From Bacteroidota bacterium (GTDB lineage Bacteria > Bacteroidota > Bacteroidia > CAILMK01 > JAAYUY01), in assembly GCA_016776505.1 (NCBI GenBank), contig JADHTG010000002.1:13852-77851 (forward strand): a stretch of 64,000 nt of DNA. Direction: 5' to 3'. The position numbers were made by a program, and so were the translations under genes. The first letter of the stretch is position 1, and each line of letters begins with the position of its first letter. The notes below the pieces were generated by a model. It was given only the letters and a program-made list of their open reading frames with translations, searched no databases and had not been told where the DNA came from. Shown piece by piece: positions 34,414 to 37,852 of this stretch.

Positions 34414-35730
34414 TTATAACTGAATTAGTTTATCCAGTGTAACATCACCAATCTCCTGCAAATTGTACTCAACAGCCACAGCGTCTTTTTTGATATTAAT
34501 GATTCTTCTCAAATCGATTGGTGTTCCAATCACCACCACATCACAATCTGTATTATTGATGGTTGTTTCAAGATCCTTGATCTGCTTATCACCATATCCC
34601 ATGGCAGGCAATAATATGCCAATATCAGGATATTTTTCAAATGTGGCAGCTATTTCACCTACAGCATATGGCCTGGGATCCACCAATTCGGAAGCACCCA
34701 GTTTGAGTGCTGCAACAACGCCAGCTCCTAAATCCATTTCACCATGTGTCAATGTAGGACCATCTTCGACTACCAAACATCTTTTTCCATCAATGATATC
34801 TGGGTTGTCAACAGTAAGGGGTGAAGCAGCTTCAACTATTTTCGCTGAAGGATTTAAGAATCGAATATTATCTCTTAATTCATTGATATCTTCTAAACAG
34901 GCTGAGTCAATTTTGTTGATTACAACAATGTCTGCCATTCTTACATTGGTTTCACCGGGATGATAAGCCATTTCATGACCTACTCTCAATGGATCAACTA
35001 CCACAATTTTAATTGTTTTTGTGGTCGATCTGTAGAAAGGAATATCATTATTTCCACCATCCCAAACAATTACATCAGCTTCTTTTTCAGCTTCTCTAAT
35101 GATCGCTTCATAGTCAACGCCTGCATAAATAACATTACCCCGTGTAATATGTGGTTCATATTCTTCCATTTCTTCAATGGTACATTTGTGCTTTGCTAAA
35201 TCAGCAATTTCGCCATAACGCTGTACTTTTTGAGCTACCAGATCACCATAGGGCATAGGGTGACGGATAGCAACCGCTTTCAAACCTCTGTCGTTGAGAA
35301 TTTCCATGACTCTTCTTGTCGTTTGTGATTTGCCACAACCGGTACGGGAAGCACAAATAGAAATAACTGGTTTATCTGTTTCTACTGTTGTATTGTCTGC
35401 GCCCATGATCATAAAATCAGCACCCGCTGCATTCACAATGGCCGAATTACTCATCACCCTGTGATAGGGCACATCGCTATAAGCAAATACTACTAAATCA
35501 ATTTTTTCTGTCAAAATAATTTCCTTTAGTTCCTCTTCCGGACGAATAGGAATTCCATCAGGATACATATCAGCTCCTGCTAACTCGGCAGGATATTTCT
35601 TGTCATCAATACCTGGTATTTGTGTAGCCGTAAAAGCAATTACATGATAGTCTTTGTTAGCGCGGAAGAAAACATTAAAATTGTGAAAATCTCTTCCTGC
35701 AGCTCCCATAATTAGTGTTCTACGTGCCAT
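34414..35730 (-). CDS. P-loop GTPase-like protein of the COG2403 / cyclic 2,3-diphosphoglycerate synthetase-like family, function unknown
   Basis: 438 aa; Rossmann-like N-terminus (LIMGAAGRDFHNF), P-loop ICASRTGCGKSQTT, G4-like motif VINKID. Confidence 0.55.
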   Translation of the reverse strand: MARRTLIMGAAGRDFHNFNVFFRANKDYHVIAFTATQIPGIDDKKYPAELAGADMYPDGIPIRPEEELKEIILTEKIDLVVFAYSDVPYHRVMSNSAIVNAAGADFMIMGADNTTVETDKPVISICASRTGCGKSQTTRRVMEILNDRGLKAVAIRHPMPYGDLVAQKVQRYGEIADLAKHKCTIEEMEEYEPHITRGNVIYAGVDYEAIIREAEKEADVIVWDGGNNDIPFYRSTTKTIKIVVVDPLRVGHEMAYHPGETNVRMADIVVINKIDSACLEDINELRDNIRFLNPSAKIVEAASPLTVDNPDIIDGKRCLVVEDGPTLTHGEMDLGAGVVAALKLGASELVDPRPYAVGEIAATFEKYPDIGILLPAMGYGDKQIKDLETTINNTDCDVVVIGTPIDLRRIINIKKDAVAVEYNLQEIGDVTLDKLIQL

Positions 35731-35917: not shown

Positions 35918-36649
35918 CTAAAACTTTAATTCTTCTCCAGGCTTTTTCAGCCCAAAATTTTTCCTAATTCCAAAAATGATCACATAGGCTATAGGCGTAT
36001 CCAACAATGCAATGATTACTTTGAAAAGAAAACCATTGATCAAAAGTTTCCAGAACTGCACCCATTCAATGGCACCTAATGTACATAGTAGGAAAATGAC
36101 GGTAAATGTATCGATAAGCTGGGAATTAATAGTAGATGCATTATTCCTAAGCCATAAATGCTTGCCTTTGGTCAAGCGTTTCCAGAAATGAAATAACTGG
36201 ACATCAACGAACTGGGCAAGAAGATAAGCCAATAAAGAAGAACCTACAGCAACAAAAGTGAGTCCAAACACCTTTGTAAATTGTTCATTCGAAACAGGAC
36301 TCCAAATGGTAGCAGGAGCTTTATTTGCCACCACAATAATGAGCAAAGTAAATAAACTGGCGAACAAGCCTGCAATCACCACTCGATTGGCTCGCTTCCT
36401 TCCGTAGACTTCTGAAATAATATCAGTAACAAGGAAGGTAATAGGATATGGTAAAATACCAACCGATAATTCAAAAGTATACCATCCAAACGGGGTCCAG
36501 TGAAAGAATTTTTGAAATATTAAATTACCAGTAATCAAAGCAGCAATAAATAATCCACCCAGTATAAGATAAATTGTTTCAGCTTGCCGTTTCTTTGATT
36601 CAACCATTTTATTATCCCATTCTATATTCTCTTTCTTGCTAATATCCAT
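35918..36649 (-). CDS. queuosine-precursor transporter YhhQ family (DUF165) membrane protein
   Basis: 243 aa, 6 TM helices; the conserved GILPYPITFLVTDIISEVYG motif. Confidence 0.75.
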   Translation of the reverse strand: MDISKKENIEWDNKMVESKKRQAETIYLILGGLFIAALITGNLIFQKFFHWTPFGWYTFELSVGILPYPITFLVTDIISEVYGRKRANRVVIAGLFASLFTLLIIVVANKAPATIWSPVSNEQFTKVFGLTFVAVGSSLLAYLLAQFVDVQLFHFWKRLTKGKHLWLRNNASTINSQLIDTFTVIFLLCTLGAIEWVQFWKLLINGFLFKVIIALLDTPIAYVIIFGIRKNFGLKKPGEELKF

Positions 36650-36685
36650 GAATAATATAGTATATTTAAAATCGAAATTTATAGC

Positions 36686-37852
36686 ATGTTAAACATCGCA
36701 TTATTCGGACCCCCTGGGGCTGGCAAAGGTACGCAATCCGAGTTTCTGATTAAAAAGTACAATCTTTTCTATATCTCCACGGGAGATTTGCTGAGAAAAG
36801 AGATGAGTGAAAAATCTGAATTGGGAATGATGGCTCAAAATGTAATTGCAGCCGGAGGGCTTGTTTCAGATGAGATTATTGTTCAGATCATTGAAAAAAC
36901 TATAACCAGTCATCCTGAATCAAATGGTTTTTTATTCGATGGTTTCCCAAGAACACAAATACAGGCATATATCCTGGTAGGTCTGATGATCAAATTAAAT
37001 ACCTCCCTTAATTGTCTCATCAATCTGGATGTTCCGGAAAAAGTTTCAATTACCAGATTATTGAACAGGGGGAAAACTTCGGGAAGGTCGGATGATAATG
37101 AAAAAGTGATCCGCAACAGGTTAAATGAATACCATGAGAAAACCTTAGCTGTATTGCAATTTTTCAAAGAAAGAGGGAAATACAGGGAAGTTCAGGGAGC
37201 GCAGTCTATCGAGAAGGTTCAGAAGGATATTCAGACCATCATTAATGAAGAATTAAGCAAAAGCCTGCTAAATATTGTATTATTTGGATACCCGGGTTCT
37301 GGAAGAGGATCGCAGGGAAGAGCATTAGCTGAAAAATACAACCTGGAATATGTAGCTACAGGCCCTATGCTGGATCAGGAAATAAAGAAAAAATCTGCTT
37401 TAGGAAAAAGCATCAAAGATCACTACAACAATGGACAATTAGTTCCTGATGAAATAGTTGTAAAGCTGATTGAAAAAAAACTGGAAAACACACAAAATAC
37501 GAAAGGATTTATTTTCAAAGGCTTTCCGCGGACACTTGTACAGTCTTATATTTTAGACGGCCTCCTGAAGAAACATGGTACAGCTATATCCCAGATCATT
37601 GAAATTGAAGTGCCGACCCTGGAGTTGATTAAACGCCTGAATACCCGAAGTAAAACAAAGCGATGCATGCCATATGACACCAGTACATCAAAAATTGTAA
37701 AACGACTGCAGGAACATAAATTAAAGACTGTTCCTGTTATTGAAAAATATAATCAAATACATGAAGTAATCAAAATCAATGGGGAGGAGAGCTTTGAGGA
37801 TGTTTTTCAGAACCTTTCTTATGAGATAGAGAATAGATTTAAAAACATGTGA
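36686..37852 (+). CDS. adk: tandem-duplicated adenylate kinase: a canonical short-type Adk domain fused to a second, degenerate Adk-like domain
   Basis: 388 aa. Domain 1 has the P-loop GPPGAGKGTQ, TGDLLR and GFPRT. Domain 2 has GYPGSGRGSQ (catalytic Lys replaced by Arg), TGPMLD (Arg lost) and GFPRT. Confidence 0.8.
   Translation: MLNIALFGPPGAGKGTQSEFLIKKYNLFYISTGDLLRKEMSEKSELGMMAQNVIAAGGLVSDEIIVQIIEKTITSHPESNGFLFDGFPRTQIQAYILVGLMIKLNTSLNCLINLDVPEKVSITRLLNRGKTSGRSDDNEKVIRNRLNEYHEKTLAVLQFFKERGKYREVQGAQSIEKVQKDIQTIINEELSKSLLNIVLFGYPGSGRGSQGRALAEKYNLEYVATGPMLDQEIKKKSALGKSIKDHYNNGQLVPDEIVVKLIEKKLENTQNTKGFIFKGFPRTLVQSYILDGLLKKHGTAISQIIEIEVPTLELIKRLNTRSKTKRCMPYDTSTSKIVKRLQEHKLKTVPVIEKYNQIHEVIKINGEESFEDVFQNLSYEIENRFKNM

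Follow-up and report, generated by a model that had tools for sequence, protein, structure and literature searches.

A bacterial tandem adenylate kinase pairing a canonical domain with a remodelled, conserved second domain predicted to have lost catalysis

A single open reading frame of 388 codons plus stop lies on the forward strand at positions 36686..37852 of a 64,000-nucleotide stretch of DNA from a Bacteroidota bacterium (assembly GCA_016776505.1, contig JADHTG010000002.1; hereafter the window). Its product, a tandem adenylate kinase (Adk) of the class termed R-type below, contains two ADK (PF00406) stretches in Pfam (E = 4.7e-88), and a pairwise alignment of the halves (aa 1–192 against aa 193–388) gave 40% identity over 180 residues (E = 2e-42). 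An original prediction made from the letters of the window had described one 388-aa frame with two complete Adk domains; the frame was exactly as described, and each motif quoted for either domain was present at its position. The start codon is correct because the N-terminus MLNIALFGPPGAGKG is the same in all relatives. No second Adk-like sequence was found elsewhere in the window. A protein 100% identical to the window protein (P0001 of this analysis) is annotated as 'adenylate kinase [Bacteroidota bacterium]'.

Domain 1 (aa 1–192, 36686..37261, forward strand, as are all features of the gene) is a canonical short-LID adenylate kinase. It contains the P-loop GPPGAGKGTQ with the invariant K14 (aa 8–17, 36707..36736), the NMP-site motif TGDLLR (aa 32–37, 36779..36796), in which R37 corresponds to R36 of E. 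coli Adk, the GFPRT motif (aa 86–90), and the short LID RLLNRGKTSGRSDDNEKVIRNR (aa 124–145, 37055..37120). Alignment to the short E. coli Adk 8pvw placed the equivalents of R119, R123, R156, D158, D159 and R167 in this last segment. For the comparison of residues, 257 tandem proteins were aligned in E. coli Adk numbering and divided by the P-loop residue of domain 2 into the class of the window protein (R-type, n = 118) and a second class (K-type, n = 139). In R-type domain 1, K13, T15, R36, R88, Q92, R119, R123, R156, D158, D159 and R167 were invariant (118/118), and position D33 was Asp in 114 of the 118. The domain therefore carries the complete catalytic-residue signature (P-loop GxxGxGKGT together with R36, R88, R123, R156, R167, D158 and D159), as the original prediction had it.

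Domain 2 (aa 193–388, 37262..37849) has the Adk fold with a remodelled active site. Its P-loop, GYPGSGRGSQ (aa 201–210, 37286..37315), has Arg207 at the K13 position, Ser209 at the T15 position and Tyr202 before the P-loop Pro, each in 118/118 R-type proteins, and G201, P203, G204, G206 and G208 are equally invariant. In the following motif, TGPMLD (aa 225–230, 37358..37375), Pro227 occupies the D33 position, which holds P, E, Q, A and other residues across the class, and Asp230 occupies the R36 position, where Asp was found in 70 proteins, Glu in 34, Gly in 12, Gln in two and Arg in none of the 118. The GFPRT motif (aa 279–283, 37520..37534) retains R282, the R88 equivalent, and is followed by Q286 (Q92), both invariant. 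The LID region (aa 317–340, 37634..37705) contains R317 (R119), R321 (R123), the segment C327-M328-P329-Y330-D331 (nt 37664-37678) and R340 (R167). The R119, R123, D159 and R167 equivalents were invariant in the class; the R156 position was Met (Met328) in 116/118 and the D158 position was Tyr in 118/118, and the five residues C-M-P-Y-D were found in 117, 116, 117, 118 and 118 of the 118 proteins, respectively. The HMMER alignment of domain 2 to solved Adks has a one-position ambiguity around Y-D, and neither register puts an Arg at R156. Of the five catalytic arginines, R88, R123 and R167 are thus present and R36 and R156 are gone, as is the P-loop lysine. The original prediction is borne out for the P-loop Lys to Arg exchange and for the change from TGDLLR to TGPMLD, since the losses of K13 and R36 are fixed throughout the class; its description of the LID arginines as 'largely lost' was overstated, since only the R156 equivalent is missing.

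Scoring each half separately against curated Adk families, a check proposed with the original prediction, separated the two domains. Domain 1 alone scored above the NCBIfam cut-offs for NF001381 (212.8 against 187 bits), TIGR01351 (183.8 against 168) and NF011105 (174 against 162), whereas domain 2 alone fell below every curated cut-off, the best score being 166.6 against 187 for NF001381, followed by 152.3 against 168 for TIGR01351 and 127.1 against 154 for NF011100. Domain 1 is therefore a full member of the single-domain short-LID ('lidless') bacterial adenylate kinases (NF001381; PDB 8pvw and 3cm0). In contrast to these enzymes, the window protein is twice as long, and its domain 2 lacks catalytic residues of the family and falls below its score threshold. 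Sixteen positions are conserved in a class-specific manner in domain 2, and most of these belong to active-site elements or border on them, namely the P-loop, the motifs that bind the NMP, the stretch behind GFPRT and the LID. A derivation of CMPYD from a zinc-binding long LID was considered and set aside: C327 aligns with the first zinc-LID Cys of 5g3y in HMMER, but K-type domain 2 has no Cys at this position, and the idea remains speculation.

The constraint on the two domains was evaluated at the codon level by the Nei–Gojobori method using 69 species-level coding sequences. Over the 65 pairs with dS < 1.5, domain 1 had a median dN/dS of 0.112, compared with 0.127 in domain 2, and the ratio of domain 2 dN to domain 1 dN was 0.98 over all 2346 pairs, indicating that the degenerate half is kept as strictly as the catalytic half. 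In addition, the mean pairwise identity across 61 relatives was 0.785 for domain 2 vs. 0.814 for domain 1. Domain 2 is a maintained module rather than a decaying relic, and it almost certainly does something useful. It shows two marks of a pseudoenzyme, an enzyme-family fold that lacks one or more canonical catalytic residues (the definition in PMC7586955) and retention by selection.

The tandem form is widespread. Metagenome-assembled genomes (MAGs) of Bacteroidales/Marinilabiliales yielded over 100 full-length relatives (about 389 aa, 73–99% identity), and the R-type gene is also carried by isolates, namely Labilibaculum antarcticum, L. manganireducens, Labilibaculum sp. and Marinifilum spp. 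A scan with one genome per GTDB species gave at least 579 genomes with a domain 2 relative, of which the best 80 were all at least 70% identical; the R-type P-loop G[YP]PG[SC]GRG[ST]Q was present in 75 of these best 80 species-level loci, with the LID CMPYD in 72 and SMPYD in three. The survey of phylogenetic distribution proposed with the original prediction thus shows that the tandem form recurs in 118 relatives and in at least 75 of the best 80 species-level loci. Several R-type contigs of 70–75% identity (L017, L027, L041, L044, L052, L053, L065 and others) bear implausible record titles, such as Bifidobacterium, Opitutales, Verrucomicrobia, Desulfobulbaceae, Acidobacteriota and Clostridia; mislabelling or mis-binning of contigs from Bacteroidota is the probable cause. 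The original prediction had also raised a sequencing or assembly artefact as an alternative. Such an artefact, in the form of a collapsed duplication or a chimera, can be dismissed with near certainty, as can a pseudogene half in decay; nothing was found in favour of either. The halves are just 40% identical, the same architecture occurs in the 118 independent full-length proteins and the 80 species-level loci, isolates included, and the dN/dS of domain 2 rules out neutral decay. The divergence of the halves together with the recurrence in relatives indicates an ancient duplication and no assembly collapse.

An exhaustive domain 2 search and two further searches revealed the K-type as a sister clade of tandem kinases (proteins P0123 and P0271-P0410; loci L082-L089) in Labilibaculum, Ancylomarina, Marinifilaceae and other Bacteroidota MAGs. 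Members such as P0376 (Labilibaculum sp. A4), P0291 (Ancylomarina longa) and P0394 (MAG GWF2_33_16), all from Marinilabiliales/Bacteroidales, are annotated just as 'adenylate kinase'. The two types share their length (388–390 aa in the K-type) and domain order, and both have an unusual LID in domain 2 with Tyr in place of D158 (x-x-x-Y-D). In contrast to the R-type, both K-type domains are canonical: domain 2 keeps K13 (139/139), R36 (138/139) and R156 (139/139), all three of which are lost in the R-type, and departs from standard Adk only at D158, which is Tyr in 139/139, and at D33, which is Ser or His. At the positions of R207, S209 and Y202 of the R-type, the K-type has Lys, Thr and Pro. 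Moreover, domain 2 of a K-type representative still clears the cut-off of one NCBIfam equivalog (NF011100, 156.7 against 154), whereas R-type domain 2 passes none. The identity between the types is 58% in domain 1 and 45% in domain 2, which suggests that domain 2 changed rapidly after the two types split and came under tight constraint afterwards. The motif Q[AS]YIL[DE]GL follows GFPRT in both domains of both types, and single-domain forms are without it.

The relationship of the domains was analyzed on a reduced set with a bootstrapped neighbour-joining tree (200 replicates), by distance methods only and with a manually entered E. coli outgroup sequence. All domain 2 sequences, including those of the K-type, the R-type, the intermediates and a stand-alone 202-aa protein, formed one clade in 198/200 bootstraps; R-type domain 2 was monophyletic in 200/200 and grouped with that of P0125 in 198/200. 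Domains 1 and 2 grouped together against other single-domain Adks in 105/200 bootstraps. This grouping and the shared Q[AS]YIL[DE]GL motif suggest that the tandem likely arose by intragenic duplication, albeit with weak support. Because both K-type domains are canonical, the R-type is the derived form in which one half has been remodelled. Judged from these sequences, the degenerate domain 2 is derived from a double-active ancestor, and the gene belongs to one of a pair of sister families of tandem kinases, a relationship that the original prediction had missed.

Divergent members of the lineage with an Arg P-loop, which also includes P0131 and P0132, suggest the order of the losses. In P0139 (GYPGAGRGTQ), R36 is lost and the LID motif ARAYD is kept, while P0125 has AKPYD and P0147 has RMPYD at this site. 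This pattern suggests a stepwise loss in which K13 and R36 went first and R156 later. Both types were found in MAG GWF2_33_16, which has an R-type gene on MEOE01000015.1 (L026) and the K-type protein P0394 (OFX89080.1 and OFY07084.1, named for GWF2_33_16 and GWE2_32_14); therefore, subject to MAG binning, they can be paralogues in one genome. Co-occurrence was established in no isolate genome: the K-type proteins P0353 and P0339 come from assemblies without an R-type gene among the retrieved loci, and only MAG GWF2_33_16 carried both. A K-type protein of L. antarcticum was absent among the 120 best Labilibaculum-type matches, and some genomes may have the R-type alone. The stand-alone 202-aa protein in the tree (P0143) is of the domain 2 type, with the canonical Lys, R36 and ARPYD. 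A second stand-alone protein (P0203, 198 aa) is domain-1-like and ends in ...NKFNIN, resembling the start of domain 2; it may represent a truncated tandem gene. One K-type sequence (P0294), 86% identical to a Labilibaculum protein, comes from a eukaryotic transcriptome set (EukProt, TRINITY contig) and is probably bacterial contamination.

A structural model was built by AlphaFold2 (AF2) with an alignment of 61 family sequences. The mean pLDDT was 87.4 and the pTM 0.65, with the same Adk order of secondary-structure elements in both halves and a pLDDT of about 85 for domain 2. In the model, the LID loop of domain 2 spans 12 residues (aa 322–333) and that of domain 1 six. The top PDB match to the full-length model in Foldseek was 9fqr_G8, a 475-residue axonemal chain aligned over both domains (21% identity, E = 3.4e-16), followed by single-domain Adks.

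Mutants of several of these residues have been described in other Adks. In E. coli Adk, R88A, R123A, R156K and R167A have less than 1% activity and R36A has 17%; K13Q changes both kcat and KM, whereas the KM of the Arg mutants is little altered, and in human AK1 the R138A mutant, equivalent to R156, has less than 0.1% activity (PMC8297476). An R123-R156-R36 stack, itself fixed by a hydrogen bond between D158 and R156, keeps the enzyme in the closed catalytic state, and D158A favours opening (PMC10778088). Key catalytic arginines are more than 90% conserved across natural Adks (PMC11526920). With two of the three stack members, the Asp anchor and the P-loop Lys missing, adenylate kinase activity is expected to be low or absent in R-type domain 2.

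We therefore propose the following model for this two-domain adenylate kinase paralogue. Domain 1 would be a fully competent short-LID enzyme catalyzing ATP + AMP <-> 2 ADP. Domain 2 descends from a second, once-active kinase domain, whose canonical state the K-type still shows. The exchange of D158 for Tyr was already present in the common ancestor of all domain 2 sequences, and the R-type lineage then lost the P-loop Lys (to Arg), the AMP-phosphate Arg36 (to Asp, Glu or Gly) and the LID Arg156 (to Met). Without R36, R156 and D158, the R123-R156-R36 stack, which closes the site and drives phosphoryl transfer, would be unable to form in domain 2. The domain has retained its glycine-rich P-loop, the residues that recognize adenine (Q92, R119 and T31) and R88, R123 and R167, and it has gained new invariant site residues (Y202, R207, S209 and C327-M-P-Y). 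It thus most likely remains a module that binds nucleotides or phosphate and modulates or stabilizes domain 1.

Three lines of evidence argue that the ligand site of domain 2 has been remodelled rather than abandoned. The glycine-rich loop, the adenine-recognition residues and three phosphate-binding arginines are invariant, most of the invariant residues newly gained by the class belong to active-site elements or adjoin them, and published Arg mutants lose catalysis more than binding. On balance, and with somewhat better than even confidence, we favour a protein in which an active kinase is joined to a nucleotide-binding module with little or no catalysis of its own, a module that would modulate or stabilize the kinase and is probably regulatory. 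The kinase plus pseudokinase tandem of the original prediction is accordingly upheld as far as the residues go, with clade-wide losses of K13, R36 and R156, scores below the cut-offs and purifying selection, while the inactivity of domain 2 is a prediction from these features, and its suggested use as a regulatory or dimerisation module a proposal.

Domain 2 might instead still be an enzyme, a phosphotransferase or hydrolase with an altered substrate or chemistry, for example with an acceptor that does not need R36, using Arg207 in place of the Lys and the Cys-Met-Pro-Tyr LID in place of R156 and D158. The very strong purifying selection, equal to that on domain 1, speaks for such an enzyme, as do the invariance of R88, R123, R167 and Q92 beside a perfect glycine-rich P-loop and the clustering of the new invariant residues at the active site, where they are not scattered over the fold. 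R-type domain 2 is even more conserved than the apparently active domain 2 of the K-type (majority fraction 0.844 vs. 0.759). However, the single change R156K in E. coli Adk, or its AK1 equivalent R138A, is enough to reduce activity to the residual levels given above, and in domain 2 three phosphate ligands are gone together and all curated adenylate kinase cut-offs are missed. Furthermore, none of the active NMP kinases met in this analysis had its P-loop Lys replaced by Arg, and the other ADK domains with this exchange, in long multi-ADK proteins, are further degenerate. We consider an altered enzyme unlikely. Less likely still is a purely structural, ligand-free module, a built-in partner that stabilizes or oligomerizes the active domain. 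Such a role would suit pseudoenzymes, which are defined by the loss of canonical catalytic residues and frequently work by other means (PMC7586955), and AF2 gives both halves as compact folds within one chain; a ligand-free scaffold, however, has no reason to keep G201, P203, G204, G206 and G208 of the P-loop or Q286, R282, R317, R321 and R340 in 118/118 proteins.

The proposal of a non-catalytic nucleotide-binding module also has several points against it. The exchange of Lys for Arg is conservative, the inactivity of domain 2 is deduced from residues, and the strict retention of the remaining catalytic arginines is equally compatible with residual or altered catalysis. With a pTM of just 0.65, the relative placement of the domains in the AF2 model is uncertain, and none of the computed results demonstrates contact between the domains or regulation of domain 1 by domain 2. 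Nor was there a conserved gene neighbourhood pointing to a pathway, the L. antarcticum and K-type loci having unrelated neighbours. A more specific but rather unlikely form of the favoured module is a sensor: domain 2 could be a dedicated adenine-nucleotide sensor made from a retired kinase domain, which would bind ATP, ADP or AMP without turnover and allosterically gate the active domain, giving a self-regulating, energy-charge-sensing kinase alongside a conventional double-active paralogue. In a more radical and speculative variant of the sensor, a new catalytic or redox-switch site would be built from the Arg P-loop together with the invariant LID residues Cys-Met-Pro-Tyr.

In the window, the kinase gene is preceded on the reverse strand by a Vut_1/YhhQ-like transporter gene (35918..36649) and followed by an HlyD/AcrB efflux pair. 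Just 36 bp (36650..36685) separate the divergent start codons of the transporter and kinase genes, and both promoters must therefore overlap or sit inside the neighbouring coding region; a scan for sigma-70 promoters and terminators gave background levels and was uninformative. Two genes upstream of the kinase, past the transporter gene, a 438-aa open reading frame (34414..35730, reverse strand) had no match in Pfam (E <= 1e-5) or NCBIfam (E <= 1e-3) and a marginal PDB match to the P-loop region of polyphosphate kinase 2 (E of about 0.008). In 88 loci, no additional adk was found up to about 6 kb away. Directly upstream of the K-type kinase in L082-L084 and L088 is a FabH-like gene of 380 aa (ACP_syn_III_C).

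Other proteins with unusual ADK arrangements were retrieved. Six long multi-ADK proteins of 454–1364 aa (P0135, P0138, P0141, P0153, P0175 and P0266) are UMP/CMP-kinase-like with eukaryote-looking repeats, and single domains in them have Arg for the P-loop Lys; these domains are often further degenerate, with GFPSS, GAPAT or GFPAN replacing GFPRT. Degeneration of one unit of a multi-ADK chain by this exchange thus seems to recur independently. Seven single-domain adenylate kinases (P0192, P0196, P0222, P0223, P0231, P0262 and P0267) have Lys/Ala/Pro-rich, histone-H1-like C-terminal tails of 160–250 residues, and a 382-aa protein (P0250) looks like a phosphoribosyltransferase (Hpt-like) N-terminal half fused to an adenylate kinase.

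Adenylate kinase is a textbook model for the coupling of dynamics to catalysis, and in bacteria it is taken to be a housekeeping enzyme with one domain. Human AK4, called 'enzymatically inactive adenylate kinase 4' in the title of a 2009 paper by Liu and colleagues (reference 65 of PMC10056885), is a precedent for a protein with the Adk fold and a proposed role outside normal catalysis; unlike the window protein, AK4 is a single-domain mitochondrial protein without a fused active partner. Eukaryotic AK5 and AK8 resemble the window protein in having two complete ADK domains in one polypeptide. Both domains of AK5 and AK8 are reported to be active (PMC10056885), whereas the residue signature of domain 2 of the window protein argues against activity. 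The axonemal tandem chain 9fqr_G8 is distant in sequence, at the level of identity given above. The bacterial tandem appears to be a duplication of its own, since domains 1 and 2 are each other's closest relatives among the sampled sequences, although with the weak bootstrap of 105/200 and in a tree whose sampling did not extend to AK5 and AK8. No paper on a bacterial tandem, fused or duplicated Adk, or on an Adk/pseudo-Adk fusion, was found in the literature, whose coverage was incomplete, so this is absence of evidence only.

Tandem Adks are already known in eukaryotes, and the present finding is a testable case of an enzyme becoming a pseudoenzyme within a model family, not a new kind of system. 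The annotation of hundreds of entries as plain 'adenylate kinase' conceals the tandem, and counts of ADK domains would overstate catalytic capacity. The K-type and R-type pair, natural and widespread, represents an evolutionary experiment on the conversion of an NMP-kinase domain into a non-catalytic module, in which the order of residue losses is still traceable in intermediate lineages. If domain 2 does sense nucleotides, anaerobic Bacteroidota would have a new way of controlling adenylate homeostasis.

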